A DNA stretch of 64,000 bases, from the NCBI GenBank assembly GCA_965208575.1, contig CBDBOV010000003.1:512001-576000 (forward strand). Reading direction: 5' to 3'. The translations under genes were made by a program, and so were the position numbers. The DNA comes from Spirochaetia bacterium (GTDB lineage: Bacteria > Spirochaetota > Spirochaetia > SZUA-6 > Bin103). This document shows positions 7,506 through 47,140 of this stretch, piece by piece (the stretch's first letter is position 1; every line of letters begins with the position of its first letter). Below the pieces are notes generated by a model. It was not told the DNA's origin. It ran no database searches and worked only from the letters and a program-made list of their open reading frames with translations.

Positions 7506-7508
7506 CGG

Positions 7509-22500: not shown

Positions 22501-25500
22501 TGAAGTCACTCGCCGCAAACGTCAGCGTCGTGCTCTCCGCGGTGCTCTTGCTGATGTCCGACGCCGCCGGCAGGTCGTCCACCGCGCTCACCGTGATCGT
22601 CACCGTCGCCGCCGCCACCGACTCCTCGTCGGCGGAGTCGGTCACCTTGTACGTGAAGCTCGCCTTCCCGTTCCAGTCCGCCGCAGGCTCGAACGTGATC
22701 GTCCCCAGGCTCGCCGCCAGCACGCTCTGTCCCGCGCTCGCCGCCGCCGTGCCCACCTTCAGCGTCCCGTGCGTGCCGGTCGGCAGCGTCACGATCTTCA
22801 CCGACTTCAGCGTGTGCCCGTTCGGATCGCTGAACGCCCCCGTGAAGTCACTCGCCGCAAACGTCAGCGTCGTGTCCTCCGCGGTGCTCTTGCTGATGTC
22901 CGACGCCGTCGGCGCGTCGTCGGTCACCGTGATGCTCACCGTCGCCGCGGCAACGGATTCGGCGTCGGACGAATCGGTCACCTTGTATGTGAAGCTCGCC
23001 GTGCCGCTCCAGTCCGTAACCGGCTCGAACACCAGCGTCCCCAGGCTGGTGGCCGCTACCGCGTCGCCGGCGCTCACCGCAGTCAGCGGATTGCCTGCCT
23101 TCAGCGTCCCGTGCGTGGCGGTCGGCAGCGTCACGATCTTCACCGACTTCAACGTGTGCCCGTCCGCGTCGCTGAACGCTCCCCTGAAGTCACTCGCCGC
23201 AAACATCAGCGTCGTGTCCTCCGCGGTGCTCTTCCTGATGTCCGACGCCGTCGGCAGGTCGTCCACCGCGCTCACCGTGATCGTCACCGTCCCCGCCGCC
23301 GCAGACTCCTTGTCGTCGGAATCGGTCACCTTGTACGTGAAGCTCGCCTTCCCGTTCCAGTCCGCCACCGGCTCGAACACCAGCGTCCCCAGGTCGGCGG
23401 CCGCTACCGAGGCCCCGGCGATCACCGCAGCCAGCGGATCGCCTGCCCTCAGCGTCCCGTGCGTGGCGTCCGGCAGCGTCACGATCTTCACCGACTTCAG
23501 CGTGTGCCCGTTCGGGTCGCTGAACGCTCCCGTGAAGTCACTCGCCGCGAACGCCAGCGTCGTGTCCTCGTTGACCGTCTTGCCGAAGTCCGACGCGGTC
23601 GGCCGCTCGCCCACGGCGATGGTAACGGTCGCTGCCGCCGCCGACTCGGCGTCGGAGGAGTCGGTCACCTGGTACGTGAAGCTCGCCGTGCCGTTCCAGT
23701 TCGCCACCGGCACGAAGGTGATCGTCCCCAGGCTCGCCGCCAGCACGGTCTGATTGGCGCTCGCCGCCGCCGTGCCCACCTTCAGCGTCCCGCCCGTGCC
23801 GGTCGGCAGCGTCACGATCTTCACCGACTTCAGCGTGTGCCCGTCCGCGTCGCTGAACGCGCCGGTGAAGTCATTCGCCGCAAACGTCAGCGTCGTGCTC
23901 TCCGCGGTGCTCTTGCTGATGTCCGACGCCGCCGGCAGGTCGTCCACCGCGCTCACCGTGATCGTCACCGTCGCCGCCGCCACCGACTCCTCGTCGTCGG
24001 AGTCGGTCACCTTGTACGTGAAGCTCGCCTTCCCGTTCCAGTCCGCCGCAGGCTCGAACGTGATCGTCCCCAGGCTCGCCGCCAGCACGCTCTGTCCCGC
24101 GCTCGCGTCCGCCGTGCCCACCTTCAGCGTCCCGTGCGCGGCGGTCGGCAGCGTCACGATCTTCACCGACTTCAGCGTGTGCCCGTCCGGGTCGCTGAAC
24201 GCGCCGGTGAAGTCGGACGCCGCGAACGTCAGCGTCGTGTCCTCGTTGACCGTCTTGCTGATGTCCGACGCCGTCGGCGCGTCGTCCACCGCGCTCACCG
24301 TGATGCTCACGGTCGCCGCGGCAGCGGATTCGGCGTCGGACGAATCGGTCACCTTGTATGTGAAGCTCGCCGTGCCGCTCCAGTCCGTAACCGGCTCGAA
24401 CACCAGCGTCCCCAGGCTGGTGGCCGCTACCGCGTCGCCGGCGCTCACCGCAGTCAGCGGATTGCCTGCCTTCAGCGTCCCGTGCGTGGCGGTCGGCAGC
24501 GTCACGATCTTCACCGACTTCAACGTGTGCCCGTCCGCGTCGCTGAACGCTCCCCTGAAGTCACTCGCCGCAAACATCAGCGTCGTGTCCTCCGCGGTGC
24601 TCTTCCTGATGTCCGACGCCGTCGGCAGGTCGTCCACCGCGCTCACCGTGATCGTCACCGTCCCCGCCGCCGCAGACTCCTTGTCGTCGGAATCGGTCAC
24701 CTTGTACGTGAAGCTCGCCTTCCCGTTCCAGTCCGCCACCGGCTCGAACACCAGCGTCCCCAGGTCGGCGGCCGCTACCGAGGCCCCGGCGATCACCGCA
24801 GCCAGCGGATCGCCTGCCCTCAGCGTCCCGTGCGTGGCGTCCGGCAGCGTCACGATCTTCACCGACTTCAGCGTGTGCCCGTTCGGGTCGCTGAACGCCC
24901 CCGTGAAGTCACTCGCCGCGAACATCAGCGTCGTGTCCTCGGCCACGCTCTTGCCGATGTCCGACCCCGTCGGCCGCTCGCCCACGGCGATGGTGACGGT
25001 CGCTGCCGCCGCCGACTCGGCGTCGGAGGAGTCGGTCACCTGGTACGTGAAGCTCGCCGTGCCGTTCCAGTTCGCCACCGGCACGAAGGTGATCGTCCCC
25101 AGGCTCGCCGCCAGCACGGTCTGATTGGCGCTCGCCGCCGCCGTGCCCACCTTCAGCGTCCCGCCCGTGCCGGTCGGCAGCGTCACGATCTTCACCGACT
25201 TCAGCGTGTGCCCGTCCGCGTCGCTGAACGCGCCGGTGAAGTCATTCGCCGCAAACGTCAGCGTCGTGCTCTCCGCGGTGCTCTTGCTGATGTCCGACGC
25301 CGCCGGCAGGTCGTCCACCGCGCTCACCGTGATCGTCACCGTCGCCGCCGCCACCGACTCCTCGTCGTCGGAGTCGGTCACCTTGTACGTGAAGCTCGCC
25401 TTCCCGTTCCAGTCCGCCGCAGGCTCGAACGTGATCGTCCCCAGGCTCGCCGCCAGCACGCTCTGTCCCGCGCTCGCGTCCGCCGTGCCCACCTTCAGCG

Positions 25501-28500
25501 TCCCGTGCGCGGCGGTCGGCAGCGTCACGATCTTCACCGACTTCAGCGTGTGCCCGTCCGGGTCGCTGAACGCGCCGGTGAAGTCGGACGCCGCGAACGT
25601 CAGCGTCGTGTCCTCGTTGACCGTCTTGCTGATGTCCGACGCCGTCGGCAGGTCGTCCACCCCGCTCACCGTGATGCCCACCGTCGCCGCGGCAGCGGAT
25701 TCGGCGTCGGACGAATCGGTCACCTTGTATGTGAAGCTCGCCGTGCCGCTCCAGTCCGTAACCGGCTCGAACACCAGCGTCCCCAGGCTGGTGGCCGCTA
25801 CCGCGTCGCCGGCGCTCACCGCAGTCAGCGGATTGCCTGCCTTCAGCGTCCCGTGCGTGGCGGTCGGCAGCGTCACGATCTTCACCGACTTCAACGTGTG
25901 CCCGTCCGCGTCGCTGAACGCTCCCCTGAAGTCACTCGCCGCAAACATCAGCGTCGTGTCCTCCGCGGTGCTCTTCCTGATGTCCGACGCCGTCGGCAGG
26001 TCGTCCACCGCGCTCACCGTGATCGTCACCGTCCCCGCCGCCGCAGACTCCTTGTCGTCGGAATCGGTCACCTTGTACGTGAAGCTCGCCTTCCCGTTCC
26101 AGTCCGCCACCGGCTCGAACACCAGCGTCCCCAGGTCGGCGGCCGCTACCGAGGCCCCGGCGATCACCGCAGCCAGCGGATCGCCTGCCCTCAGCGTCCC
26201 GTGCGTGGCGTCCGGCAGCGTCACGATCTTCACCGACTTCAGCGTGTGCCCGTTCGGGTCGCTGAACGCCCCCGTGAAGTCACTCGCCGCGAACATCAGC
26301 GTCGTGTCCTCGGCCACGCTCTTGCCGATGTCCGACCCCGTCGGCCGCTCGCCCACGGCGATGGTGACGGTCGCTGCCGCCGCCGACTCGGCGTCGGAGG
26401 AGTCGGTCACCTTGTACGTGAAGCTCGCCGTGCCGTTCCAGTTCGCCACCGGCACGAAGGTGATCGTCCCCAGGCTCGCCGCCACCACGGTCTGATTGGC
26501 GCTCGCCGCCGCCGTGCCCACCTTCAGCGTCCCGCCCGTGCCGGCCGGCAGCGTCACGATCTTCACCGACTTCAGCGCGTGCCCGTCCGCGTCGCTGAAC
26601 GCTCCCGTGAAGTCATTCGCCGCAAACGTCAGCGTCGTGCTCTCCGCGGTGCTCTTGCTGATGTCCGACGCCGCCGGCAGGTCGTCCACCGCGCTCACCG
26701 TGATCGTCACCGTCGCCGCCGCCACCGACTCCTCGTCGTCGGAGTCGGTCACCTTGTACGTGAAGCTCGCCTTCCCGTTCCAGTCCGCCGCAGGCTCGAA
26801 CGTGATCGTCCCCAGGCTCGCCGCCAGCACGCTCTGTCCCGCGCTCGCGTCCGCCGTGCCCACCTTCAGCGTCCCGTGCGCGGCGGTCGGCAGCGTCACG
26901 ATCTTCACCGACTTCAGCGTGTGCCCGTCCGGGTCGCTGAACGCGCCGGTGAAGTCGGACGCCGCGAACGTCAGCGTCGTGTCCTCGTTGACCGTCTTGC
27001 TGATGTCCGACGCCGTCGGCGCGTCGTCCACCGCGCTCACCGTGATGCTCACGGTCGCGGTGGCCACCGACTCCTCGTCGTCGGAGTCGGTCACCTTGTA
27101 GGTGTAGCTCGCAGACCCGTTCCAGTCCGCCGCCGGCTCGAACGTGAGGGTGCCCAGGTTGGCGGCGGTGATCGAGTCCCCGGCGCTCACCACAGTCAGC
27201 GGATTGCCTGCCTTCAGCGTCCCGTGCGTGGCGGTCGGCAGCGTCACGATCTTCACCGACTTCAACGTGTGCCCGTCGGGGTCGCTGAACGCGCCGGTGA
27301 AGTCACTCGCCGCAAACATCAGCGTCGTGTCCTCCGCGGTGCTCTTCCTGATGTCCGACGCCGTCGGCAGGTCGTCCACCGCGCTCACCGTGATCGTCAC
27401 CGTCCCCGCCGCCGCAGACTCCTTGTCGTCGGAATCGGTCACCTTGTACGTGAAGCTCGCCTTCCCGTTCCAGTCCGCCACCGGCTCGAACACCAGCGTC
27501 CCCAGGTCGGCGGCCGCTACCGAGGCCCCGGCGATCACCGCAGCCAGCGGATCGCCTGCCCTCAGCGTCCCGTGCGTGGCGTCCGGCAGCGTCACGATCT
27601 TCACCGACTTCAGCGTGTGCCCGTTCGGGTCGCTGAACGCCCCCGTGAAGTCACTCGCCGCGAACATCAGCGTCGTGTCCTCGGCCACGCTCTTGCCGAT
27701 GTTCGACCCCGTCGGCCGCTCGCCCACGGCGATGGTGACGGTCGCTGCCGCCGCCGACTCGGCGTCGGAGGAGTCGGTCACCTTGTACGTGAAGCTCGCC
27801 GTGCCGTTCCAGTTCGCCACCGGCACGAAGGTGATCGTCCCCAGGCTCGCCGCCACCACGGTCTGATTGGCGCTCGCCGCCGCCGTGCCCACCTTCAGCG
27901 TCCCGCCCGTGCCGGCCGGCAGCGTCACGATCTTCACCGACTTCAGCGCGTGCCCGTCCGGGTCGCTGAACGCTCCCGTGAAGTCATTCGCCGCAAACGT
28001 CAGCGTCGTGCTCTCCGCGGTGCTCTTGCTGATGTCCGACGCCGTCGGCAGGTCGTCCACCGCGCTCACCGTGATCGTCACCGTCGCCGCCGCCACCGAC
28101 TCCTCGTCGTCGGAGTCGGTCACCTTGTACGTGAAGCTCGCCTTCCCGTTCCAGTCCGCCGCAGGCTCGAACGTGATCGTCCCCAGGCTCGCCGCCAGCA
28201 CGCTCTGTCCCGCGCTCGCGTCCGCCGTGCCCACCTTCAGCGTCCCGTGCGCGGCGGTCGGCAGCGTCACGATCTTCACCGACTTCAGCGTGTGCCCGTC
28301 GGGGTCGCTGAACGCGCCGGTGAAATCGCTGGCCGCGAACGTCAGCGTCGTGTCCTCGTTGACCGTCTTGCTGATGTCCGACGCGGTCGGGGCGTCGTCC
28401 ACCGCGCTCACCGTGATGCTCACGGTCGCGGCGTCCGCCGACTCCTCGTCGTCGGAGTCGGTCACCTTGTACGTGAAGCTCGCAGACCCGTTCCAGTCCG

Positions 28501-28757
28501 CCGCCGGCTCGAACGTGAGGGTGCCCAGGTTGGCGGCGGTGATCGAGTCCCCGGCGCTCACCACAGTCAGCGGATTGCCTGCCTTCAGCGTCCCGTGCGT
28601 GGCGGTCGGCAGCGTCACGATCTTCACCGACTTCAACGTGTGCCCGTCCGCGTCGCTGAACGCTCCCCTGAAGTCACTCGCCGCAAACATCAGCGTCGTG
28701 TCCTCCGCGGTGCTCTTCCTGATGTCCGACGCCGTCGGCAGGTCGTCCACCGCGCTC
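19538..28757 (-). pseudogene. Giant adhesin/autotransporter, C-terminal part: 21 cadherin-like repeats, PKD, He_PIG Ig, beta-barrel
   Basis: NDPPEANAG...VTLDGSGSSD (PKD/K319-like), LPAATGGNGALTY...FDAATRTLSGTP (He_PIG), and WGRG...FKTTYRY barrel with a terminal aromatic. In frame with the 46630 ORF once the transposon is removed. Confidence 0.88.
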
Positions 28758-28918
28758 ACCGTTGTCGGCTCTCAGATTGATCTGAGCGGAATGGGGGCGG
28801 ACGTCTCACGATCGACTGGAGTGGAGGACGGGAGAGTCGAGGTAAACTGACCAGAAAAACAGGGTAGCTGCCCCAGGTGATGAGAACCGGACAGCTACCC
28901 TGAACTAAGGACAGCCGA

Positions 28919-29530
28919 TTGGTACTCCATCTGGCGGTTGATTTCAAGAGACTTCAGGAACAGGGCAAGGAGTATCGGTGGCCGCGGCCGGAGCGCTGCC
29001 TGGAGTGCGGTCGGAGGCGGCCGTGGGGCCATGGCTATGTCGGACGGTGCTTCGATGGCTGCGGCGAGCCGCTGTGGATGAAGCGCTACCGGTGTCCGGA
29101 CTGCGGGACCGTGTACACGCTGCGACCGGACAGCCACTACCGCGGGTTCTGGGCGCCGTGGCGAGTGATTCTGGTAGCCCTGCTGGGCAAGCTGAAGGGT
29201 GGTCGCTGGATCGCGCGGGTGAGCCGACAGCGGCAGCAGTACTGGCGCCAGGGGTTGCGCCGGCAGTTGTTGCTGGAGGGGGTGACCGCGGTGAGCCGGC
29301 CGGGCCAGGTTGCGGCCAGTGCGCTGAAGGCGCTGGTGGTGCGGTTGATCATCGTCAGTACGCATTCGGTGAGCTACCGCCAGATACGGCGAGTGGATGC
29401 CGCCCCCGAGTTGGTGCTGGCGGTGCCGGTGGTGGGCTTTGCGGGACACCTTGATGGCGTCGGGAGCACAGCAGACAGCGCCCTGAAGGAGCCAGGGAAT
29501 GAGCCGACACCCAGTCACGGGGCACGATGA
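28919..29530 (+). CDS. Zn-finger protein (DUF6431-like)
   Basis: WPRPERCLECG..WGHGY...RYRCPDCG two-CxxC pattern; TTG start after AAGGA. Confidence 0.7.
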   Translation: MVLHLAVDFKRLQEQGKEYRWPRPERCLECGRRRPWGHGYVGRCFDGCGEPLWMKRYRCPDCGTVYTLRPDSHYRGFWAPWRVILVALLGKLKGGRWIARVSRQRQQYWRQGLRRQLLLEGVTAVSRPGQVAASALKALVVRLIIVSTHSVSYRQIRRVDAAPELVLAVPVVGFAGHLDGVGSTADSALKEPGNEPTPSHGAR

Positions 29531-29811
29531 GCACGGTGCTGGTCGCGGGGTGCCGGCTCAGACCGGGCAAGTGGCTGGTGAGCAGTGCAGGAGGACGCCG
29601 CCGCGGTGCTGGCGAGCGCCTTTGGCGCTTGGGTGGCTGTCCGGGCGACGCTGCGGGCAGGGCGCTGGTGGCGCGGCTGATCATGATCGGAGCGGAGAAA
29701 ATAACGCGAACTGGCGCCTGGGTGACCCCAAGCCTACCGGATCTTTGCGGTGATCGGCGAACCAATGGGGAGCAAATTGATGCCACCAACACCCCAGGAG
29801 GTTCCTCGATC

Positions 29812-31128
29812 ATGGAGGAAGAGAAGAAAAAGCGGATCGCGTTGTTCCGGTTCGGTGTGATCGCCGGCCTGATCGGGTATGCGAAGCTCGACCAGGGCAA
29901 GCGCGAGGCGCGCATCAAGGACCTGGCGGAGCAGGAATGGAAGATCCCATTCTCGCTGCGCAGTTCGATCAGCCGGTCGACGATCCGCGACTGGCTGCGG
30001 CGTTACGAGCACAGCGGCAAGAAACTGGAGAGCCTGTTCCCGAAGGACCGCGCGGACGCCGGCGTGGGGCGCAGCATCGATCCCGAGACCGAGTTGGCAC
30101 TGGTCAATCTCCGGCGTGAACTGGCACAGGCGTCGTTGTCAGTGGTGCTGCAGGTGGCGCGCCGCCGCAATCTCCTGCCGCCCGACTTCGCAGCCTCACG
30201 GCAAAGCATCTACCGATTGTTCCGGCGCCATGGTCTGCACCGGCAGCGGCCCGCGACGCAGGACCGGCGGCGCTTCGAAGCGGAACTGCCGAACGACTTG
30301 TGGCAAGCGGATTGCATGCACGGCCCGCGCGTGAAAAGCGACGGCAAGCTGCGCAAGACGTTTCTGTTCGCCTGCATCGATGATCACTCGCGGCTCATCA
30401 CCGGCGCCCGCTTCTATCTGCGTGAAAACATCGACTGTTTCCAGGACTGCCTGCTGCGGGCGCTCGAAACGCGCGGTCTGCCACGCAAACTGTATGTCGA
30501 TAACGGCCCCAGCTTTCGCTCCCAACGACTCAGTTACGCCTGTGCATCGCTGGGCATAGCGCTCCTCTTCGCGACCCCATACACGCCCCAGGGAAAGGGT
30601 AAAATCGAGCGCTATTTCCGCACCATACGCACCCAGATGCTGCCTCTGGTCAGCGATCACGATACCCTCGAGCAGCTCAACGCCCAGCTTGCCGAGTGGC
30701 TCGACCACAGCTACCATCAGCGGCTTCACTCCAGCACCGGGGAGCAGCCCCTGCAGCGCTATCTGCGCCACCTGGAACTGCTGCGGCCTGCGCCCCAGAA
30801 TGTGCGTGACCACTTCCGCACCATGGTGCGCCGCAAGGTCGACAAGGATCGTGCCGTCGCCCTCTACGGCAAGCTCTACGAAGCGCCGGTGGGGCTCATC
30901 GGGAACACCGTCAACCTGCTCTATCATGAGGCTGATCCGTCCCGCATCGAGGTGTTCTTCGAAGATCGCTCTTACGGCTTCCTCAGTGAGTTGAACCCCC
31001 ACGTCAACAGCCGCGTGCGCCGCATCAGCGGCCATGAGACCGAGCTCGAGCCGGCGCCGGAGCCGCCCGCTGATGACCCCCAGCCCGGCCCCCGCGGCGG
31101 CCAGCTGTTCGAGGAGTCCGACCGATGA
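29812..31128 (+). CDS. DDE transposase/integrase with Mu-transposase-like C-terminus
   Basis: AGGAGG RBS; IALFRFGVI, HTH, WQADCMHG, YVDNGP, KGKIERYF and RKVDKD. Confidence 0.9.
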   Translation: MEEEKKKRIALFRFGVIAGLIGYAKLDQGKREARIKDLAEQEWKIPFSLRSSISRSTIRDWLRRYEHSGKKLESLFPKDRADAGVGRSIDPETELALVNLRRELAQASLSVVLQVARRRNLLPPDFAASRQSIYRLFRRHGLHRQRPATQDRRRFEAELPNDLWQADCMHGPRVKSDGKLRKTFLFACIDDHSRLITGARFYLRENIDCFQDCLLRALETRGLPRKLYVDNGPSFRSQRLSYACASLGIALLFATPYTPQGKGKIERYFRTIRTQMLPLVSDHDTLEQLNAQLAEWLDHSYHQRLHSSTGEQPLQRYLRHLELLRPAPQNVRDHFRTMVRRKVDKDRAVALYGKLYEAPVGLIGNTVNLLYHEADPSRIEVFFEDRSYGFLSELNPHVNSRVRRISGHETELEPAPEPPADDPQPGPRGGQLFEESDR

Positions 31129-31955
31129 TCGACCTCAGACATGCCTTCGGTTTCCAACGCGATCCGTTCCCCCAGGACGTCCCGATCAACGGTCTGTACC
31201 CGATCCCGGGCCTGAAAGCGCTCACCGAGCGCTTTCAGTATGCCCTCGGGCTCGGCCTCATCACCGTCATCACCGGCGAGGTGGGAGCGGGAAAATCCAC
31301 TTCCCTGCGCCATGTCACGAGCACCCTGCACCCCGCCGAATACCGTCTCCTGGCGGTCATCGCCACCACCGGCACGCTGCTCGACCTGCTGCGCCAGATC
31401 TGCCTGGAGATGGGCACCCCCCCGCGCTCCTCACTGGCCGTCCTCAGCCGCACCGTGCGCGACCTGCTGACCGACATCAGGCGCAAGAAGCAGACCCCGT
31501 TGCTGGTCGTCGACGAGGCACATCTGCTCCGCTTCGAGGTGTTCGCACAGCTCCACACTCTCACTCAGTTCGCCTTCGATTCGCAGACCTTGATGCCGAT
31601 GGTGCTGGCCGGCCAGAGCAGCCTGCTTGACCGCCTGTTGTTCCATACCTCGCGCCCGCTCGCCTCACGGGTCGTGGGCCGCAGCCACCTCGATGCTCTC
31701 TCCCTTGATGACATGCGCGGCTACCTCGACCACCATCTGCAGCTCGCCGCCGGGCGGGACACCCAGTCCGCCACAGCGCGGCGCAGCGCCGACCTGCTCA
31801 GCGACGAAGCCGCCGTCGCCATCCATCAGGGCTCCGGCGGGCTCCTGCGGCGCGCCAATCATCTCGCCCGCGGCGCCCTCATGGCGGCCGCTCGCGAGCA
31901 TTGCTCGGTGGTCGCCGCCGAGCATGTCCGGCTCGCTGCCACCGAGATTCTGTAG
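31125..31955 (+). CDS. ExeA/TnsC-like AAA+ ATPase
   Basis: Walker A GEVGAGKS, Walker B VVDEAH, LAGQ and SGGLLR; ATGA overlap with the transposase. Confidence 0.9.
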   Translation: MIDLRHAFGFQRDPFPQDVPINGLYPIPGLKALTERFQYALGLGLITVITGEVGAGKSTSLRHVTSTLHPAEYRLLAVIATTGTLLDLLRQICLEMGTPPRSSLAVLSRTVRDLLTDIRRKKQTPLLVVDEAHLLRFEVFAQLHTLTQFAFDSQTLMPMVLAGQSSLLDRLLFHTSRPLASRVVGRSHLDALSLDDMRGYLDHHLQLAAGRDTQSATARRSADLLSDEAAVAIHQGSGGLLRRANHLARGALMAAAREHCSVVAAEHVRLAATEIL

Positions 31956-31964
31956 GTCGGTTCC

Positions 31965-32279
31965 GTGATCAACGTCGCTATCAGAAAAATCGCCGGCAGC
32001 GACCGCGAATACTTCGCCTACGCCAGGACGTTCGCCGGTCGCGCCACCTACTTCGTGTATTTCCGTGATGACATCTGGGGCGCCATGGTGCTGCACAACT
32101 TCACCGACATGCTGCGCGCCGTGTTCCAGAACTCACCCGTCAAGCTGACTCTCGTCGAACAGGAACTCTCTCTCAAACATCCTGCCGTTCTCGGCTTCCT
32201 GAGACAATCTCCTGAGGACCCCTCAGCACCACCGACAGGAGATCTCGCCCGCGGCCACCGGCAACCCGGTGCAGAATAA
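31965..32279 (+). CDS. Small hypothetical protein, fourth gene of the transposon
   Basis: Starts 9 nt after the ATPase stop and ends inside the right end. Globular alpha/beta-like composition (REYFAYARTFAGRATYFVYFRDDIWG). Confidence 0.65.
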   Translation: MINVAIRKIAGSDREYFAYARTFAGRATYFVYFRDDIWGAMVLHNFTDMLRAVFQNSPVKLTLVEQELSLKHPAVLGFLRQSPEDPSAPPTGDLARGHRQPGAE

Positions 32280-35200
32280 TATGGTGTCCAGATTACCGTG
32301 CGAAAAAACAGCAGAATTACGTGAGACCCAACAACCGTGATCGTCACCGTCCCCGCCGCCGCAGACTCCTTGTCGTCGGAATCGGTCACCTTGTACGTGA
32401 AGCTCGCCTTCCCGTTCCAGTCCGCCACCGGCTCGAACACCAGCGTCCCCAGGTCGGCGGCCGCTACCGAGGCCCCGGCGATCACCGCAGCCAGCGGATC
32501 GCCTGCCCTCAGCGTCCCGTGCGTGGCGTCCGGCAGCGTCACGATCTTCACCGACTTCAGCGTGTGCCCGTTCGGGTCGCTGAACGCCCCCGTGAAGTCA
32601 CTCGCCGCGAACATCAGCGTCGTGTCCTCGGCCACGCTCTTGCCGATGTTCGACCCCGTCGGCCGCTCGCCCACGGCGATGGTGACGGTCGCTGCCGCCG
32701 CCGACTCGGCGTCGGAGGAGTCGGTCACCTTGTACGTGAAGCTCGCCGTGCCGTTCCAGTTCGCCACCGGCACGAAGGTGATCGTCCCCAGGCTCGCCGC
32801 CACCACGGTCTGATTGGCGCTCGCCGCCGCCGTGCCCACCTTCAGCGTCCCGCCCGTGCCGGCCGGCAGCGTCACGATCTTCACCGACTTCAGCGCGTGC
32901 CCGTCCGCGTCGCTGAACGCTCCCGTGAAGTCATTCGCCGCAAACGTCAGCGTCGTGCTCTCCGCGGTGCTCTTGCTGATGTCCGACGCCGCCGGCAGGT
33001 CGTCCACCGCGCTCACCGTGATCGTCACCGTCGCCGCCGCCACCGACTCCTCGTCGTCGGAGTCGGTCACCTTGTACGTGAAGCTCGCCTTCCCGTTCCA
33101 GTCCGCCGCAGGCTCGAACGTGATCGTCCCCAGGCTCGCCGCCAGCACGCTCTGTCCCGCGCTCGCGTCCGCCGTGCCCACCTTCAGCGTCCCGTGCGCG
33201 GCGGTCGGCAGCGTCACGATCTTCACCGACTTCAGCGTGTGCCCGTCCGGGTCGCTGAACGCGCCGGTGAAGTCGGACGCCGCGAACGTCAGCGTCGTGT
33301 CCTCGTTGACCGTCTTGCTGATGTCCGACGCCGTCGGCGCGTCGTCCACCGCGCTCACCGTGATGCTCACGGTCGCGGTGGCCACCGACTCCTCGTCGTC
33401 GGAGTCGGTCACCTTGTAGGTGTAGCTCGCAGACCCGTTCCAGTCCGCCGCCGGCTCGAACGTGAGGGTGCCCAGGTTGGCGGCGGTGATCGAGTCCCCG
33501 GCGCTCACCGCAGTCAGCGGATTGCCTGCCTTCAGCGTCCCGTGCGTGGCGGTCGGCAGCGTCACGATCTTCACCGACTTCAACGTGTGCCCGTCCGCGT
33601 CGCTGAACGCGCCGGTGAAATCGCTGGCCGCGAACGTCAGCGTCGTGTCCTCGTTGACCGTCTTGCTGATGTCCGACGCGGTCGGGGCGTCGTCCACCGC
33701 GCTCACCGTGATGCTCACGGTCGCGGCGTCCGCCGACTCCTCGTCGTCGGAGTCGGTCACCTTGTAGGTGAAGCTCGCAGACCCGTTCCAGTCCGCCGCC
33801 GGCTCGAACGTGAGGGTGCCCAGGTTGGCGGCCGCTACCGAGGCGCCCGCGCTCACCGCAGCCAGCGGATTGCCTGCCTTGAGGGTGCCGTGCGCGGCGG
33901 CCGGCAGGGTGACGATCTTCACCGACTTCAGCGTGTGCCCGTTCGGGTCGCTGAACGCCCCCGTGAAGTCACTCGCCGCGAACGTCAGCGTCGTGTCCTC
34001 CGCAGTGCTCTTGCTGATGTCCGACCCGGTCGGCCGTTCGCCCACGGCGATGGTCACGGTGGCTGCCGCCGCCGATTCGGCGTCGGAGGAGTCGGTCACC
34101 TTGTACGTGAAGCTCGCCGTGCCGTTCCAGTTCGCCACCGGCACGAAGGTGATCGTCCCCAGGCTCGCCGCCACCACGGTCTGATTGGCGCTCGCCGCCG
34201 CCGTGCCCACCTTCAGCGTCCCGCCCGTGCCGGCCGGCAGCGTCACGATCTTCACCGACTTCAGCGCGTGCCCGTCCGCGTCGCTGAACGCTCCCGTGAA
34301 GTCATTCGCCGCAAACGTCAGCGTCGTGCTCTCCGCGGTGCTCTTGCTGATGTCCGACGCCGCCGGCAGGTCGTCCACCGCGCTCACCGTGATCGTCACC
34401 GTCGCCGCCGCCACCGACTCCTCGTCGGCGGAGTCGGTCACCTTGTACGTGAAGCTCGCCTTCCCGTTCCAGTCCGCCGCAGGCTCGAACGTGATCGTCC
34501 CCAGGCTCGCCGCCAGCACGCTCTGTCCCGCGCTCGCGTCCGCCGTGCCCACCTTCAGCGTCCCGTGCGCGGCGGTCGGCAGCGTCACGATCTTCACCGA
34601 CTTCAGCGTGTGCCCGTCCGGGTCGCTGAACGCGCCGGTGAAGTCGGACGCCGCGAACGTCAGCGTCGTGTCCTCGTTGACCGTCTTGCTGATGTCCGAC
34701 GCCGTCGGCGCGTCGTCCACCGCGCTCACCGTGATGCTCACGGTCGCGGTGGCCACCGACTCCTCGTCGTCGGAGTCGGTCACCTTGTAGGTGTAGCTCG
34801 CAGACCCGTTCCAGTCCGCCGCCGGCTCGAACGTGAGGGTGCCCAGGTTGGCGGCGGTGATCGAGTCCCCGGCGCTCACCACAGTCAGCGGATTGCCTGC
34901 CTTCAGCGTCCCGTGCGTGGCGGTCGGCAGCGTCACGATCTTCACCGACTTCAACGTGTGCCCGTCGGGGTCGCTGAACGCGCCGGTGAAGTCACTCGCC
35001 GCAAACATCAGCGTCGTGTCCTCCGCGGTGCTCTTCCTGATGTCCGACGCCGTCGGCAGGTCGTCCACCGCGCTCACCGTGATCGTCACCGTCCCCGCCG
35101 CCGCAGACTCCTTGTCGTCGGAATCGGTCACCTTGTACGTGAAGCTCGCCTTCCCGTTCCAGTCCGCCACCGGCTCGAACACCAGCGTCCCCAGGTCGGC

Positions 35201-37129
35201 GGCCGCTACCGAGGCCCCGGCGATCACCGCAGCCAGCGGATCGCCTGCCCTCAGCGTCCCGTGCGTGGCGTCCGGCAGCGTCACGATCTTCACCGACTTC
35301 AGCGTGTGCCCGTTCGGGTCGCTGAACGCCCCCGTGAAGTCACTCGCCGCGAACGTCAGCGTCGTGTCCTCGGCCACGCTCTTGCCGATGTCCGACCCCG
35401 TCGGCCGCTCGCCCACGGCGATGGTGACGGTCGCTGCCGCCGCCGACTCGGCGTCGGAGGAGTCGGTCACCTTGTACGTGAAGCTCGCCGTGCCGTTCCA
35501 GTTCGCCACCGGCACGAAGGTGATCGTCCCCAGGCTCGCCGCCACCACGGTCTGATTGGCGCTCGCCGCCGCCGTGCCCACCTTCAGCGTCCCGCCCGTG
35601 CCGGCCGGCAGCGTCACGATCTTCACCGACTTCAGCGCGTGCCCGTCCGCGTCGCTGAACGCTCCCGTGAAGTCATTCGCCGCAAACGTCAGCGTCGTGC
35701 TCTCCGCGGTGCTCTTGCTGATGTCCGACGCCGTCGGCAGGTCATCCACCGCGCTCACCGTGATCGTCACCGTCGCCGCCGCCACCGACTCCTCGTCGTC
35801 GGAGTCGGTCACCTTGTACGTGAAGCTCGCCTTCCCGTTCCAGTCCGCCGCAGGCTCGAACGTGATCGTCCCCAGGCTCGCCGCCAGCACGCTCTGTCCC
35901 GCGCTCGCGTCCGCCGTGCCCACCTTCAGCGTCCCGTGCGCGGCGGTCGGCAGCGTCACGATCTTCACCGACTTCAGCGTGTGCCCGTCCGGGTCGCTGA
36001 ACGCGCCGGTGAAGTCGGACGCCGCGAACGTCAGCGTCGTGTCCTCGTTGACCGTCTTGCTGATGTCCGACGCCGTCGGCGCGTCGTCCACCGCGCTCAC
36101 CGTGATGCTCACGGTCGCGGTGGCCACCGACTCCTCGTCGTCGGAGTCGGTCACCTTGTAGGTGTAGCTCGCAGACCCGTTCCAGTCCGCCGCCGGCTCG
36201 AACGTGAGGGTGCCCAGGTTGGCGGCCGCCACCGAGGCGCCGGCGCTCACTGCAGCCAGCGGATTGCCTGCCTTCAACGTCCCGTGCCCGCCATCCGGCA
36301 GCGTCACGATCTTCACCGACTTCAGCGTGTGCCCGTCGGGGTCGCTGAACGCGCCGGTGAAATCGCTGGCCGCGAACGTCAGCGTCGTGTCCTCGTTGAC
36401 CGTCTTGCTGATGTCCGACGCGGTCGGGGCGTCGTCCACCGCGCTCACCGTGATGCTCACGGTCGCGGCGTCCGCCGACTCCTCGTCGTCGGAGTCGGTC
36501 ACCTTGTACGTGAAGCTCGCCTTCCCGTTCCAGTCCGCCGCCGGCTCGAACTTGAGGGTGCCCAGGTTGGCGGCCGTGATCGAGGCGCCGGCGCTCACCG
36601 CAGCCAGCGGATCGCCTGCCTTCAACGTCCCGTGCGCGGCGGTCGGCAGCGTCACGATCTTCACCGACTTCAGCGTGTGGCCGTCCGGGTCGCTGAACGC
36701 GCCGGTGAAGTCCGCCGCCGCGAACGTCAGCGTCGTGTCCTCGTTGACCGTCTTGCTGATGTCCGACGCCGTCGGCTTGTCGTCTACCGCGCTCACCGTG
36801 ATGCTCACGGTCGCGGCGTCCGCGGACTCATCGTCGTCGGAGTCGGTCACCTTGTACGTGAAGCTCGCCTTCCCGTTCCAGTCCGCCGCCGGCTCGAACT
36901 TGAGCGTCCCCAGGCTGCCGGCCAGCACGACCTGACTGGTGGTCGCGTCCGTCGTGCCGACCTTCAGCTTCCCGTGCTCGGCGTCCGGCAGCGTCACCAC
37001 CTTCACCGACTTCAGCGTGTGCCCGTCCGCGTCGCTGAACGCTCCCGTGAAGTCAGACGCCGCGAACGTCAGCGTCGTGTCCTCGTCCACGGTCTTGCTG
37101 ATGCCGGACGCCGTCGGCGCCGTCGCCCA

Positions 37130-40610: not shown

Positions 40611-40964
40611 TCGCTGTCGAACAGCGTCAGCGGCAGGTCGTCCGCGGCGGCGTAGCTGATTCCACGGAAGCAGGGTGACTCACTCCTCGGGCAGCCGGCA
40701 ACGCTCGGCGACGGCAGCGTCCCGACGTTCACCTGCGCCGGCTGTCCGTCGGTCGACTGCGTCACCGTGAAGGTCGAACTCGCCAGCCCCCCGGCGCCGA
40801 CCGACGCCGATGCTGGCGCCGTAGCGCCCGTCACGCTCAGCGGAACCTCCAGGCTCTCGGGCGCGCCCTCGCGAACCGTCACCTTCACCGTCGCCGGACT
40901 CCCCGCGTGCGGCGCCCCGTCGGTCCGCTCCAGACCCACCGTCAGCGCAAACGGCGCACCCGGA

Positions 40965-41735
40965 TTGCCGGTCAGGTCCAGCTCCCCCAGCACGGTCAAC
41001 CCGTTGAACACGCCCGGCGGCAAACTGCTCAGACCGGTGTTTTGCAAATACAGATAATGCAGCCTGGTCAGCCCGTCGAACACGTCCGGCGGCAAACTGC
41101 TCAGATTGTTGCCATCCAGGTCCAGCCGCGTCAGCCAGGTCAGGTCGTCGAACACGTCCGGCGGCAAACTGCTCAGATTGTTGTCGGACAGATTCAGATG
41201 ACTCAGCCAGGTCAGGTCGTCGAACACGTCCGGCGGCAAACTGCTCAGATTGTTGTCGGACAGATACAGACTACTCAGCCAGGTCAGGTCGTCGAACACG
41301 TCCGGCGGCAAACTGCTCAGATTGTTGTCGGACAGATTCAGACTATTCAGCCGGGTCAGGTCGTCGAACGCGTCCGGCGGTAAACTGCTCAGACTGTTGC
41401 CGCCCAGCCGCAACGTCCTCAGCGCGGTCAGGTCGTCGAACACGCCCAGCGGCCAACTGCTCAGATTGTTGTCGGACAGATCCAGTGTCCTCAGCCTGGG
41501 CAGATCGTCGAACACGCCCGGCGGTAAACTGCTTATATCGTTGCCAATCAGCCACAGCGACGTCAGCCCGGTCAGCCCGGCAAAGTCGCCGGTCCGCAGC
41601 GACTCGATGCCGAGGCCAGGCAACAACCAAAGCGTGATGCCCGCCAGGTCCGCCAGGGTGACGGCCTGGCAGTCCGTCTTCGAGACCGTTCTCAGAATAC
41701 TGTTTTGCAACTGCCGGGTGCGGCCGCAGATGCCC
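40965..41735 (-). repeat. LRR head 2: Cys N-cap + 8 full 24-aa LRRs
   Basis: GICGRT...DCQAVT N-cap; LTxLxxLxLxxNxLSSLPPDVFDD units with a 72-bp period. Confidence 0.92.
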
Positions 41736-42054
41736 GTGAAGGGGGTGCTGTTGGTCACCGCCCGGTCCGTCAGGTAGCCCGCGTCGTTGCCCGCGATGTC
41801 CTGGACCGGGTTCGCCAACGGCGCCATGTAGCTCATCGTCACCATGTCGCCGTACGCCACCGCCGAGGCCAGCGTCAGCGTCACCGCCGAGCCGGTGATG
41901 GATACCGCGCCGCTGGCCGCCAAACTCACCTCGGTCCCGCCCACGTTCACCGTGAACGCGCTCGACGCCGGCTTCGAAGCCTCGTCCAACGCCTCGTTGT
42001 ACGTCAGGGTCAGCGTCGCCCCGTCCACCGCCGCGGTGGAGAGCGTCGGCGCCG

Positions 42055-44670
42055 CCGCGTCCCAGGCCGCCGTCTCGGTCACCGCCGTCGCCGGCCCCGT
42101 CTGCAGCCCGTCCGTCGCCGAGTTCGCAGCCACCGTCACGACCACGCCGGCCCCCGACGTGGGCGTCACCAACAGCGTGTAGGTCCTGGCGTCGGTGGCG
42201 GCGAACGTCCCCTTCGTCCCGCCGGTCACCGTCACGTCGCCGGTCTCGAATCCCGTCACGTCCTCCGACCAGGTGAACGTCACGGTGAGATCGCTCGTCG
42301 CGTTGATCCGGGCCGGCACCCCGGTGATCGCCACCGCCGGCGCCGCCGCGTCCCAGGCCGCCGTCTCGGTCACCGCCGCCGCCGGCCCCGTGTTGACCCC
42401 GTCGGTGGCCGCGTCGTTCGCCACCGTCACGACCACGTCGGCGTTCCCGGACGGTGTCACCGCCAGCGTGTACTCCCTGGCGCTGGTGGCCGTGAACGTC
42501 CCCTTCGTCCCGCCGGTCACCGTCACGTCCCCGGCCGCGAAGTCCGTCACGTCCTCCGACCACGTGAACGTGACCGTGCGCGCCGTCGCCGAGTCGATCC
42601 TGGGCGGCACCCCGGTGATCGCCACCTTCGGCGCCGCCGCGTCCCAGGCGGCCGTCGCCTCGACCGTCGCCGCCGGACCCGTCTGCAGCCCGTCCGTCAC
42701 CGAGTTCGCCGCCACCGTCACCACCACGTCCGCCGAGCCCGTCGGCGTTACCGCCAGCGAGTACTCCCTGTCGCTGGTCGCCGTGACCGTCCCCTTCGTA
42801 CCACCTGTCACCGTCACGTCACCCGTCTCGAACTCCGTCACGTCCTCCGACCACGTGAACGTCACGCTCAGCGCCGTCTTCGCGTTGATCTTCGAAGGCA
42901 CACCGCTGATCCCGACCTTCGGCGCCGCCGCGTCCCAGGCCGCCGTCTCGGTCACCGCCGCCGCCGGACCCGTGTTGACCCCGTCGGTGGCCGCGTCATT
43001 CGCCACCGTCACGACCACGCCGGCCCCGGACGTCGGCGTCACCAACAGCGTGTAGGTCCTGGCGTCGGTGGCGGCGAACGTCCCCTTCGTCCCGCCGGTC
43101 ACCGTCACGTCGCCGGTCTCGAATCCCGTCACGTCCTCCGACCACGTGAACGTCACGTTCAGCGCCGTCGTCGCGTTGATCTTCGAAGGCACACCGCTGA
43201 TCCCGACCTTCGGCGCCGCCGCGTCCCAGGCCGCCGTCTCGGTCACCGCCGCCGCCGGACCCGTGTTGACCCCGTCGGTCGCCGCGTTCGCCCCGACCGT
43301 CACGACCACGTCGGCACTCCCGGACGGCGTCACCGCCAGCGTGTACTCCCTGGCGCTGGTCGCCTTGAACGTCCCCTTCGTACCACCCGTCACCGTCACG
43401 TCACCCGTCTCGAACTCCGTCACGTCCTCCGACCACGTGAACGTGACCGTGAGCGCCGTCGCCGAGTCGATCTTGGCCGGCACCCCCGTGATCGCCACTG
43501 TCGGCGCCGCCGCGTCCCAGGCCGCCGTCTCGGTCACCGCCGCCGCCGGCCCCGTGTTGACCCCGTCGGTGGCCGCGTCGTTCGCCACCGTCACGACCAC
43601 GTCGGCGTTCCCGGACGGCGTCACCGCCAGCGTGTACTCCCTGGCGCTGGTGGCCGTGAACGTCCCCTTCGTACCACCTGTCACCGTCACGTCACCCGTC
43701 TCGAACTCCGTCACGTCTTCCGACCACGTGAACGTCACGGTGAGATCGCTCTTCGCGTTGATCTTGGCCGGCACCCCGGTGATCGCCATCGTCGGCGCCG
43801 CCACGTCCCAGGCCGCCGTCTCGGTCACCGCCGCCGCCGGACCCGTGTTCGCCCCGTCGGTCGCCGCGTTCGCCACGACCGTCACGACCACGTCGGCGTT
43901 CCCGGACGGCGTCACCACCAGCGTGTACTCCTTGGCGCTGGTGGCCGCGAACGTCCCCTTCGCCCCGCCGGTCACCGTCACGTCGTGAGTCTCGAACCCC
44001 GTCACGTCTTCCGACCACGTGAACGTCACGCTCAGCGCCGTCGTCGAGTTGACCGCCGAAGGCACCCCGGTGATCGCCATCGTCGGCGCCGCCACGTCCC
44101 AGGCCGCCGTTTCGGTCACCGCCGCCGCCGGCCCCGTGTTGACCCCGTCGGTCGCCGCGTTCGCCACGACCGTCACGACCACGTCGGCGTTCCCGGACGG
44201 CGTCACCACCAGCGTGTAGGTCTTGGCGTCCGTGGCGGCGAACGTTCCCTTCGTCCCGCCGGTCACCGTCACGTCGCCGGTCTCGAACCCCGTCACGTCC
44301 TCCGACCACGTGAACGTCACGAAGAAATCGCTCGCCGAGTTGATCCGGGCCGGCACCCCGGTGATCGCCACCGTCGGCGCCGCCGCGTCCCAGGCCGCCG
44401 TCTCGGTCACCGCCGCCGCCGGCCCCGTGTTGACCCCGTCGGTGGCCACGTCATTCGCCACCGTCACGACCACGTTGGACCCGGAGGTGGGCGTCACCGT
44501 CAGCGTGTAGGTCTTGGCGTCCGTGGCGGCGAACGTTCCCTTCGTCCCGCCGGTCACCGTCACGTCGCCGGTCTCGAACCCCGTCACGTCCTCCGACCAC
44601 GTGAACGTCACGCTCAGCGCCGTCGTCGAGTTGATCGCCGAAGGCACCCCGGTGATCGCCACCCTCGGCG
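42055..44670 (-). repeat. 9 tandem 97-aa bacterial Ig-like repeats
   Basis: Same 291-bp unit as 37130-40610. Confidence 0.92.
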
Positions 44671-45029
44671 TTTCGCTGCCGAACAGCGTCAGCGGCAGGT
44701 CGTCCGCGGCGGCGTAGCTGATTCCACGGAAGCAGGGTGGCCGCCACCCCCAGCAGCCGCCACGGTTCGGCGACGGCAGCGTCCCGACGTTCACCTGCGC
44801 CGGCTGTCCGTCGGTCGACTGCGTCACCGTGAAGGTCGAACTCGCCAGCCCCCCGGCGCCCACCGACGCCGATGCTGGCGCGGTAGCGCCCGTCACGCTC
44901 AGCGGAACCTCCAGGCTCTCGGGCGCGCCCTCGCGAACCGTCACCTTCACCGTCGCCGGACTCCCCGCGTGCGGCGCCCCGTCGGTCCGCTCCAGACCCA
45001 CCGTCAGCGCAAACGGCGCACCCGGATTG

Positions 45030-46030
45030 CGGGTCAGGTCCAGCTCCCCCAGCGCGGTCAACCCGTTGAACAACCCCGGCGGCAAACTGGTCAGCCTGTT
45101 GTCCTGCAGGTCCAGCGTCGTCAGCGCGGTCAGGTCGTCGAACACGCCCGGCGGTAAACTGCTCAGACTGTTGTAGCCCAGCCACAGCGACCTCAGCGCG
45201 GTCAACCCGTTGAACAACCCCGGCGGCAAACTGGTCAGCCTGTTGTCCTGCAGGTCCAGCGACGTCAGCGCGGTCAGGTCGTCGAACACGCCCGGCGGTA
45301 AACTGCTCAGACTGTTGCCGCTCAGCCTCAGCGACGTCAGCGCGGTCAGGTCGTCGAACACGCCCGGCGGCAAACTGCTCATATTGTTGCCGCTCAGGCC
45401 CAGCGACGTCAGCGCGGTCAGGTCGTCGAACACGCCCGGCGGCAAACTGGTCAGACTACTGTTGTCATACAGGTCCAGCTCCGTCAGCGCGGTCAGGTCG
45501 TCGAACACGCCCGGCGGTAAACTGCTCATATCGTTGCGAAACAGCCAAAGCTTCCGCAGCGCGGTCAGGTCGTCGAACACGCCCGGCGGTAAACTGCTCA
45601 GACTGTTGCCGCCCAGCCCCAGCTCCGTCAGCGCGGTCAGGTCGTCGAACACGCCCGGCGGTAAACTGCTCATATCGTTGTTAAACAGCCGCAGCTTCCG
45701 CAGCGCGGTCAGGTCGTCGAACACGCCCGGCGGCAAACTGGTCAGCCTGTTGCCGCTCAGCCTCAGCGACGTCAGCGCGGTCAGGTCGTCGAACACGCCC
45801 GGCGGCAAACTGGTCAGCCTGTTGCCATACAGGTCCAGCGTCGTCAGCGCCGTCAGCCCGGCAAAGTCACCGGCCTGCAACGATGGAGACGATCCGGAGA
45901 AGAGCTTTTCGGCCAGATTCAGCGACGTGATGCCCGCCAGGTCCGCCGCGGTGACGGCGCCGCATTTCGCCTTCGAGACCGCCTTCGCAAGGGCGTCACG
46001 CACCTCCGGGGTGCGGCTGCAGATGCCCGG
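45030..46030 (-). repeat. LRR head 1: Cys N-cap + 11 full 24-aa LRRs
   Basis: GICSRT...KCGAVT N-cap; LTALxxLxLxxNxLxSLPPGVFDD units. Confidence 0.92.
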
Positions 46031-46923
46031 ATCGTTGTCCGTCACCGTCACCATTGCCGTCGACGCGCTGCCGCGCGTGTAGCCGTCGCCCGCCCGCAAC
46101 GCAAAGGTGATCACGCTGTCGACCTCGTCCAGGGCATCGTCCAGCGTGGCCACCGCCAGCGTGAACGACGCGGAACCGGCCGCGATCGTCATGCTCGTCG
46201 GCCTCGTGCTGCCCGAAAACGTCGTCATCGCCCCCGTCTCGGTCGCCACCCCGACCACCGTCAGCGTGGCGGCCGTCGAACCCGTGCGCGTCACCGTGAA
46301 CTCGGCGTTCGCCCCCTCCGTCACCGGACTCGAGACCGCCGCAACGGTCACCACCGGTTTGGTTTGAGACCAGGCTGGCGCGTCCACGAACAGAATCAGC
46401 AAGGCTGGCAGCAGGATCCTGCCGCCAGCCTTGCTATTGCTACATCGCTGTTGGGCTGTCCCGTTTTTCAGCCTACCCTGGCCGGCGCGCGTCACTGCGT
46501 CGCTACCGTCCACGGCGACCTGCAGCGTGAACGGCACGCCCATCTCCGTCTCGGCGGCGAGGCGGGAGAAGCCGCCCCGGCCCGCACCCGACCTGTCGGC
46601 TGTAGGCCACATGCCGTGCTTCCGAAACATTCACCGCATCCAAGCGAGGAGAGGCGTCCTGAACGGAGTCGGGAGCCCACTGGCGCCCGTGCTCATTCAG
46701 CGGACCTACGAGATTAGCGGGAAAGAGAGCGCCTAGTCGATATTTTTACGATGTACTATTCATTATAATTCGTACTCTTTTCATATCTTTCCAAGGAAAA
46801 GAACGCTACTCCGTCACTGTGGAGAGACAGCGAGTTGCGGCGCCACTCCGCTTGCAACTGGGGGAAGCACGAAGCGACGGCGACGACGCGGTAGCCCAGC
46901 TCCCGCGTACCGCATACTTTGTC

Positions 46924-47067: not shown

Positions 47068-47140
47068 GCGCCAGAGCATCTCCTTGCGTCGCGATCCGGC
47101 AACCCGGTTTCCTGATAGGATGGATTCGGACGGAGAGTAC

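Follow-up and report, generated by a model that had tools for sequence, protein, structure and literature searches.

Organization of the locus

Both LRR arrays in the window (by which we mean the whole 64-kb stretch of DNA that was analysed) are contained in a minus-strand ORF, 46630-32048, and both heads lie near the N-terminus of an autotransporter-type gene. Once a transposon is removed, this gene comprises 7,838 codons, stop-free and with the flanks in frame. No promoter-like site was found upstream of the gene. We assigned the following features, listed from the N-terminus onward.

46364..46420, minus: hydrophobic signal-peptide-like stretch with AWSQ at its end, proposed by inspection of the sequence; putative start codon
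46031..46360, minus: N-terminal beta-rich domain with nothing above cut-off in Pfam, which we take by eye to be Calx-beta-like
45857..46030, minus: head 1 N-cap, C-x-R-T-x-x-V...C-x-x-V-T, two helices, probable disulfide; no Pfam match
45059..45853, minus: head 1 LRR array, 11 full 24-aa typical-class repeats with homogenised scaffold and variable concave face
44681..45028, minus: head 1 Ig-like C-domain, a conserved family domain without a Pfam model
44733..44767, minus: head 1 Cys-bounded variable loop
42047..44668, minus: stalk, 9 Big_12 Ig-like repeats of 97 aa
41741..42046, minus: SWM_repeat / Big_5 domain (Pfam)
41576..41737, minus: head 2 N-cap, predicted helices at model residues 8-17 and 28-32
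40997..41572, minus: head 2 LRR array, 8 full 24-aa repeats
40619..40966, minus: head 2 Ig-like C-domain, almost the same as its counterpart in head 1 apart from the loop
40671..40705, minus: head 2 Cys-bounded variable loop
37115..40606, minus: stalk, 12 Big_12 repeats
32334..37114, minus: stalk, 14 cadherin-like (tandem-95) repeats
28763..32333, plus: gene-splitting transposon of 3,571 bp, TG...CA ends, 5-bp target duplication
21554..28757, minus: detached 3' part, 21 more cadherin-like repeats
20978..21553, minus: PKD-like and He_PIG domains
19538..20977, minus: linker and autotransporter-like beta-barrel (Atlas), final residue Tyr

The interval 40965..46030, which had been described simply as two LRR heads, is mostly Ig-like stalk separating them.

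The transposon, whose cargo is an unknown ORF, an rve transposase and an AAA ATPase, sits between passenger and barrel, and there is no single reading frame in this assembly. The first-pass annotation had placed the LRR heads on the very long stalk of a bacterial surface protein. We agree as to the gene but not, for this assembly, as to its display: the transposon cuts the heads off from the barrel, and this copy is therefore probably not displayed on the cell surface. The barrel region was recognised through the Atlas, in which 28 of 30 matches were autotransporter clusters (score 0.96, 182 shared features); it was unmatched by Pfam PF03797 and had no match in a PDB sequence search. A relative, P0124, carries an unbroken gene with a head, a stalk and a similar C-terminal region.

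Architecture and distribution of the heads

The AF2 model of the head (pLDDT 95.7, pTM 0.92) has three parts: a helical Cys cap composed of two helices, "typical" LRRs, and an Ig-like domain modelled as a beta-sandwich; a single-sequence model left the C-domain unresolved. Neither the cap alone nor the C-domain alone had a Pfam match at E<=0.1. The C-domains of the two heads differ at only 2 of ~263 nt, but at 11 of ~27 nt inside the Cys loop, so that the Cys-bounded loop is a second variable element, one overlooked in the first-pass annotation. LRRTM2, LRRC15, the Nogo receptor and designed LRRs gave the best sequence and fold matches, VLRA ranking below them; the fold searches used the whole head, and the LRR part dominated the matches. 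The effector families XopAC, XopL and SlrP were matched through their LRRs alone, far below cut-offs, and were rejected. In a tree of C-domains the window heads group only with unnamed proteins.

The head family to which they belong is apparently unnamed, and its cap and C-domain have no Pfam model. It comprises ~1,600 clusters at 50% identity, with up to 13 heads in one protein, and was found in 64 MAGs from at least 10 phyla of sponge-type lineages. Because the family genomes fall in lineages reported as sponge symbionts, the source bacterium is probably a sponge symbiont as well, to judge from its relatives alone. When GTDB representatives were scanned with both aligned heads and C-domain patterns, 0 of 196 stretches were confirmed, and therefore no close relative was found among them. 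We likewise found no ortholog from a close strain and no conspecific allele, and a query with the cap against annotated phages and plasmids gave no match.

A uniform scaffold and a variable concave face

Head 1 contains 11 full repeats (45853-45059), one of them of 25 aa, and head 2 contains 8 (41572-40997). These counts agree with those made at first reading, with partial repeats at the ends of both arrays in addition, and the concave residue sets then listed are present exactly as given. The reported conservation of the scaffold at the DNA level extends to uncommon codons: the scaffold Ser is AGT in 19 of 19 repeats, compared with an AGT usage of 11% in the whole gene. A 21-nt scaffold pattern has 16 matches in the 64-kb window against 0.05 expected by chance, all within the heads. 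Variation is concentrated on the concave face, as had been proposed, with the five concave positions ranking 3rd of the 3003 five-position sets that can be drawn from 15 non-core positions, in each head. Position x12 is additionally variable, as are x2 and x19 in head 2. Modules do recur non-adjacently, H1.9 and H1.11 being 1 nt apart, H1.2 and H1.8 3 nt, and H1.3 and H1.5 4 nt. Mean pairwise repeat identity is 0.73 in head 1 and 0.66 in head 2 (borderline against ~0.7 for HIC repeats, and a different statistic from the Psim of the HIC literature).

Substitution patterns and selection

It had been suggested that concave positions be examined for excess non-synonymous change, and the excess is present: across 18 of the 19 window repeats, concave pN is 60/183=0.33 and overall pS is 32/300=0.11. 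Exposed convex positions have a pN of 0.06. Within the variable tract, pS is lowest at the Leu and Asn codons (3/69), a result that is hard to reconcile with a local mutator. Among 178 protein arrays, concave variability exceeds convex in 173, and scaffolds differ from array to array. The stalk repeats also have variable codons (pN 0.39 vs pS 0.16 for the top 20 of 97, a post-hoc choice).

These values may be read as neutral: recent tandem expansion would have left the uniform scaffold, the concave residues would be no more than those on which an LRR places least constraint, and the gene might be decaying. Passages of one study (PMC3138743) describe a variable concave face as general among LRRs, and this gene is indeed broken by a transposon. 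GC-driven codon bias lowers pS, and for the concave codons alone pN/pS is only ~1.4 (0.33/0.23). The ratio stands at 0.87 for 31 older arrays, which lack the signature, and pN exceeds pS in only 35 of the 56 non-window arrays. Neutrality, however, predicts a concave pN of about pS, whereas the value is 2.6-3.7 times the module-wide one. At variable sites, moreover, the changes fall in first and second codon positions, third positions being almost invariant, and the Cys loop has its 11 changes between near-identical flanks. The signal is repeated in intact genes: in 12 other genomes, 25 young arrays give pN 0.36 and pS 0.16, a ratio inflated by the choice of young arrays for their low pS. We therefore regard a purely neutral origin as rather improbable.

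Selection could also be real and yet serve escape, the exposed face changing so as to evade binding by phages, by immune receptors of the sponge or by competitors, not to gain ligands. An equal pN excess is predicted in that case, and a surface target that is costly to keep could well turn over often and be lost to a transposon; the convex side, which is exposed to the same degree, and the long stalk should then change as well, and the convex pN given above is low. The cap and C-domain, too, are conserved across at least 10 phyla, and escape as the principal cause seems to us unlikely.

Duplication and recombination

Exact duplications of 144 nt and 72 nt are present. The stalk repeats carry a recombination signal (0 of 500 permutations were as low), and a PHI-like test on the LRR modules was negative (p 0.25-0.52), with low power at 19-29 informative sites. 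The first-pass annotation had attributed diversification to module shuffling or gene conversion and had proposed a search for silent cassettes. We saw no silent cassettes or extra scaffold copies outside the heads in the 64-kb window, no reverse transcriptase motif in the window or in 122 loci, and no within-module recombination signal in that test; on these points its reading gained no support. A diversity-generating retroelement was rejected: besides the missing reverse transcriptase motif, there is no template copy in the 64-kb window, and the base spectrum of the variable sites is not adenine-specific.

The same observations weigh on any programmed system in the manner of VLRs or DGRs, whether assembly from silent cassettes or a dedicated mutagenic enzyme acting within the population. 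The concave blocks of head 1 do look mosaic, and some modules from distant loci of the same genome are near-identical (4 of 3452 pairs), as are some from different heads of the same gene (12 of 5394 pairs). Modules in short reading segments, on the other hand, number just 3 of 745, all from one truncated gene, and the closest homolog pairs are near-identical, with 0/140 and 4/160 concave differences. We consider such a system very improbable. The first reading had named identical arrays among relatives, with no concave excess and no shared modules elsewhere, as evidence against its own inference; near-identity is what the closest pairs have, and the concave non-synonymous excess exists nonetheless. 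Turnover of repeat number and of the concave face is seen in the arrays of relatives.

Proposed explanation and significance

We believe, with a probability of about 0.6, that the gene encodes, or encoded before the transposon entered it, a giant autotransporter-type adhesin with binding heads, diversified by repeat duplication and diversifying selection as in fungal HNWD receptors, and not by VLR-like assembly. In an intact copy, the barrel would anchor ~60 Ig- and cadherin-like domains that hold two heads off the cell. By analogy with other LRR proteins, the rigid cap-LRR-Ig head would bind a host or microbial ligand through its concave sheet, possibly together with the disulfide-bounded loop, and a role in host or partner recognition is plausible. 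New faces could arise without a dedicated machine, with unequal recombination or slippage copying a single repeat, a pair of repeats or an entire head. Such copying, of which the duplications would be the visible trace, would maintain the uniform scaffold, and selection would then promote amino-acid changes at concave codons, where the excess is observed. Turnover appears to be episodic, with a signal in young arrays and none in old ones, which are often conserved among relatives.

A bolder extension is a cross-phylum, natural "repebody" repertoire in sponge microbiomes, in which a shared cap-LRR-Ig head would be re-faced in living populations by repeat shuffling and by conversion across heads, genes and genomes, and the Cys loop would match, by convergence, the LRRCT insert of VLRs. 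We hold this to be doubtful; if true, an adaptive-like library of binders would set host or partner specificity.

The LRR "eukaryotic-like proteins" of sponge symbionts have long been tallied without a defined structure or ligand. The present analysis defines a bounded, confidently modelled head of ~370 aa, with the Cys cap as a family marker, and provides a map of the head residues apparently under selection; attachment and recognition between symbiont and sponge are thus testable by pull-down. The heads may show how sponge-type bacteria recognise their host or neighbours. Our preferred reading, duplication with selection, would also bring bacterial surface adhesins under the HIC mode of diversifying receptors, and natural VLR-like scaffolds for binders are available from the family by the thousand. 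The broken copy in the window contributes no mechanism of its own.

Comparison with known systems

Parts of three reports (PMC8163846, PMC11706023, PMC3909097) describe an enrichment of sponge symbionts in LRR proteins that carry signal peptides and cadherin, fn3 and Ig domains, and the lateral transfer of such proteins. The likeness to these LRR eukaryotic-like proteins (PF00560/PF12799/PF13855) lies in the combination of LRRs with cadherin- and Ig-type domains. In the parts that bear on them, that literature gives Pfam counts, without the cap-LRR-Ig head, multi-head giants, homogenised scaffold or concave selection.

In the Listeria internalins InlA, InlC and InlF, an N-cap, LRRs and an Ig-like domain are joined and the concave sheet binds, according to passages of PMC3930863. 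The predicted fold has the same helical cap, LRR and Ig-like layout, here with animal-type repeats, and for InlF the alignment spans model residues 1-371 (Z 23.4, rmsd 4.1, 271 aligned). The NCBIfam InlA score, at 73 bits, is far below the cut-off of 1600. As regards Internalin_N and LRR_adjacent, cap and C-domain drew no Pfam match; among the Atlas matches to cap plus LRR, a single Internalin_N cluster ranked 8th (0.93). Internalin repeats are 22 aa long, whereas the present family has 24-aa typical repeats, a cap with a probable disulfide, many-headed members and a diderm barrel anchor.

The variable lymphocyte receptors (VLRs) of lampreys and hagfish combine an LRRNT cap with beta-strands, an LRRCT cap, a variable concave face, a stalk and a C-terminal variable loop (PMC3900441, in part). 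The first-pass annotation had likened the heads to them, and the resemblance stands as regards the 24-aa repeats, the similar consensus, the variable concave face, the stalk and the C-terminal variable loop; VLRA aligns over 244 residues (Z 25.1, rmsd 2.4). It is not specific to VLRs, since many non-VLR LRRs share LRRV repeats of 24 aa in which the concave residues vary, and other typical-class LRRs match as well or better, LRRTM2, LRRC15 and the Nogo receptor among the better. We do not class the heads as VLRs: they lack LRRNT and LRRCT, and we saw no incomplete gene with cassettes in the window and no deaminase. Engineered repebodies and DLRR designs join an InlB cap to VLR-consensus repeats. 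DLRR_E is among the top fold matches with the cap included (Z 29.6, model range 1-365), and the matches 3rfs and 3rfj are named as internalin B-repeat module-VLR fusions; the present family differs in being natural and in ending with an Ig-like domain instead of LRRCT.

The HIC repeats of fungal HNWD/NLR receptors, as sections of PMC13449251 and PMC10197012 describe them, are near-identical with few hypervariable sites and evolve by diversifying selection and by gain, loss and shuffling. Unlike HNWD, the protein described here is an extracellular LRR adhesin with neither NTPase nor effector domain. For the manner of diversification, the HNWD/NLR HIC receptors are the closest known match.

LRR arrays and the interrupted gene

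The two LRR heads that the first-pass annotation had placed at 40965-46030 lie in the 5' part of a long minus-strand ORF, and their arrays were confirmed to contain 11 and 8 full 24-aa repeats. The gene to which they belong is laid out as follows.

46630-32048, minus strand: ORF of 4,860 aa carrying both heads
28763-32333: transposon of 3,571 bp, with TG...CA ends, a 5-bp target duplication and three genes
28759-19538: detached 3' part of the gene (21 cadherin-like repeats followed by PKD and He_PIG domains and the C-terminal region)

Variation is focused on the concave positions, as had been proposed: the set x4, x5, x7, x9 and x10 ranks third among 3003 possible five-position sets in each head. 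Entropy over the 19 repeats is 1.8-2.5 bits at these positions and 2.1 at x12, and is 0-0.9 at most of the remainder (the value of 1.5 at x2 is due to head 2). Conservation of the scaffold extends to the DNA, with serine encoded by AGT in 19/19 repeats, compared with 11% AGT use gene-wide. We also found the near-copies of modules reported at a distance within arrays; exact matches at offsets of 72 and 144 nt show duplication by one or two repeats.

The gene flanks of the transposon are in frame, and removal of the element leaves 7,838 codons without a stop. The transposon encodes a 203-aa first ORF without a family, an rve transposase whose score against the IS481 model, 208.6, falls short of the cut-off of 224, and an AAA ATPase (AAA_22). 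The gap between the two arrays holds nine Big_12 domains plus a single SWM domain, and the stalk totals 21 Big_12 and 35 cadherin-like repeats. At 4-5 nm for each Ig- or cadherin-like domain, its approximately 60 domains would span roughly 250 nm. The Atlas protein-cluster neighbors of the C-terminal region are autotransporter barrels in 28 of 30 hits (score 0.96); Pfam PF03797 did not match this barrel-like region. In this assembly the transposon severs the barrel from the heads, and intact alleles would be expected to display the heads on the cell surface. Separately, an 18-pair hairpin lies at 46397-46436, within the signal-peptide-coding stretch, where 0.7 such sites are expected by chance.

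Neighboring features in the window are the following.

47021-57738: type I PKS, order KS-AT-DH / MT-ER-KR-ACP-KS-AT, in two frames split near 50.55-50.87 kb; we take this order to resemble sponge SupA
8008-11841: HamA and DEAD helicase, presumably a Hachiman-like defense pair
2733-18371: transposase cluster (DDE_Tnp_1, IS1595-like, DDE_3/HTH, and IS91-like with an integrase-like neighbor)

Predicted fold of the head

Each array is preceded by a Cys-containing cap and followed by a domain of ~115 aa (C-domain); queried alone, neither gave a Pfam match. From an alignment of 37 sequences (both window heads and 35 of 69 complete heads, picked by length), AlphaFold2 predicted two cap helices, a solenoid and a beta-sandwich, in that order (pLDDT 95.7, pTM 0.92). 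The model matched designed DLRR_E (Z 29.6, rmsd 2.3, 275 aligned), engineered LRRTM2 (29.4, 3.5, 266), Nogo receptor 2 (26.9, 2.7, 266), hagfish VLRA (25.1, 2.4, 244) and InlF (23.4, 4.1, 271, over residues 1-371), and the best natural sequence matches were LRRC15 and IGFALS. Because these matches favor other LRR proteins, the repeats belong to the "typical" class and are not specific to VLRs.

The first-pass annotation had overlooked a variable loop bounded by cysteines in the C-domain. The C-domains of heads 1 and 2 differ at 2 of ~263 nt, then at 11 of ~27 nt within this loop, and are identical afterwards. Of 691 C-domains, 46 (from 15 proteins) contain the loop. It differs among the heads of proteins P0118, P0173, P0198 and P0218 and is almost constant among those of P0082 and P0095.

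Probable selection on the concave face

We counted substitutions on the edges of minimum spanning trees, along paths picked to favor synonymous steps, for 18 of the 19 window repeats (a 25-aa repeat was omitted). Concave pN was 60/183 against an overall pS of 32/300, a ratio of 3.1 (Fisher p 4e-9, treating edges as independent); convex pN was 19/334, and pS for Leu/Asn codons within the variable tract was 3/69. Across 25 arrays with pS <0.25, from 12 other genomes, concave pN was 587/1640 and overall pS 433/2746, and at the protein level concave variability exceeded convex variability in 173 of 178 arrays. Several observations temper a reading of selection, however: pN/pS inside concave codons is only ~1.4, the ratio is biased upward by choosing low-pS arrays and is 0.87 in 31 older arrays, pN exceeds pS in 35 of 56 arrays, and the stalk's most variable codons, picked post hoc, reach a pN of 0.39 against a pS of 0.16. 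The most extreme young array, L071:8789-10033 (10 repeats, non-concave pS 0.04, concave pN 0.50, complete reading frame), would be a good model for experiments.

Turnover of the arrays

From 252 similar protein pairs we aligned 48 non-overlapping ones, 47 of which offered sufficient LRR positions. Among these 47, concave positions had diverged more than the non-LRR sequence in 37 pairs and more than convex positions in 34. The closest pairs are almost identical (0/140 and 4/160 concave differences); in several pairs with 14-29% non-LRR divergence, 60-80% of concave positions differ because arrays have been replaced or re-registered. Repeat number was unequal in 41 of 48 pairs, in part from truncation and pattern misses.

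Modules differing by at most 3 nt made up 22 of 1,832 pairs within an array and 12 of 5,394 pairs drawn from different heads of the same gene. For modules from neighboring genes the count was 0 of 2,265, for those from distant loci in the same genome 4 of 3,452, and for those from different genomes 16 of 264,197. The 64-kb window holds no further scaffold copies outside the heads, and 3 of 745 modules lay in short reading segments; the cassette search at relatives' loci reached their 10-kb flanks, and cassettes may lie elsewhere in a genome. A motif scan found no RT motif in the window or the 122 listed loci, and no adenine bias was found at variable sites. A PHI-like recombination test was negative on the LRR modules and positive on the stalk. 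Diversification likely follows the pattern of high internal conservation (HIC) repeats rather than VLR assembly: unequal recombination would homogenize the repeats, selection would diversify the concave face, and the head would bind through that face.

Family size and spread

Of 8,000 candidates scored against head 1, 3,322 reached E<=1e-10, and many of these may match through the LRR only. A 69-aa query (the cap and the start of the first repeat) gave 1,625 clusters at 50% identity, 481 of them at 1e-10. Among 267 gathered proteins, a set chosen for many heads, 206 have the cap (811 copies), 148 have the C-domain, and up to 13 heads occur per protein. The closest homolog, P0129, matches the window gene in its C-domain and stalk, at 74% identity across 1,285 aa; its array is different.

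The cap DNA pattern matched at least 122 stretches in at least 66 genomes (counted from titles), all MAGs. A cap-plus-LRR check was passed by 112 of the 122 listed stretches, leaving at least 64 genomes; two failures were chance-like matches and eight were truncated or contained insertions. Genomes among the listed matches include Poribacteria, Latescibacterota, Acidobacteriota, Nitrospirota, Gemmatimonadota, Dehalococcoidia, Rhodothermales, Actinomycetota and Pseudomonadota (including Ca. Spongiihabitans), among others. Lineages of the matched MAGs have been reported from sponges (PMC4245539, PMC8163846); the association rests on lineage, as record titles give no habitat, and suggests a sponge habitat for the window organism.

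LRR genes of a Thermodesulfobacteriota MAG (L035:5740-13573) and a Nitrospirales MAG (L070:341-13015) are 72-81% identical in DNA across 1.3-2.1 kb and have modules that differ by just 1-3 nt, and the C-domain tree mixes phyla (14 changes against a minimum of 7). These observations are compatible with, and do not prove, lateral transfer of the head family. The nearly identical C-domains of L002 (Gammaproteobacteria MAG) and L078 (Gemmatimonadetes MAG) may reflect transfer or mis-binning. Four Nitrospirales loci (L056, L057, L062, L068) have reading frames open across their full 20 kb, with 5-9 caps; the Nitrospirales genome OZ242177 has such heads at several distant loci; and a subtype (L001, L044, L055) carries a long Cys-containing insertion between the cap and the first repeat.

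Comparison with known systems

We found no description of this head type, or of selection on it, among the listed hits of searches in a mainly open-access literature; subscription papers or supplements may cover it. That sponge symbionts are enriched in LRR proteins is well known (PMC8163846, PMC11706023, PMC3909097; for further comparison, PMC6306507, PMC4209131, PMC3138743, PMC8546597). The feature is real, and it combines known kinds. To the sponge LRR proteins it adds the layout of internalins, in which a cap, LRRs and an Ig-like domain follow one another (PMC3930863). The heads are not a VLR system when set against VLR assembly (PMC3900441); the way in which they appear to diversify matches instead the HIC pattern of the fungal HNWD receptors (PMC10197012, PMC13449251).
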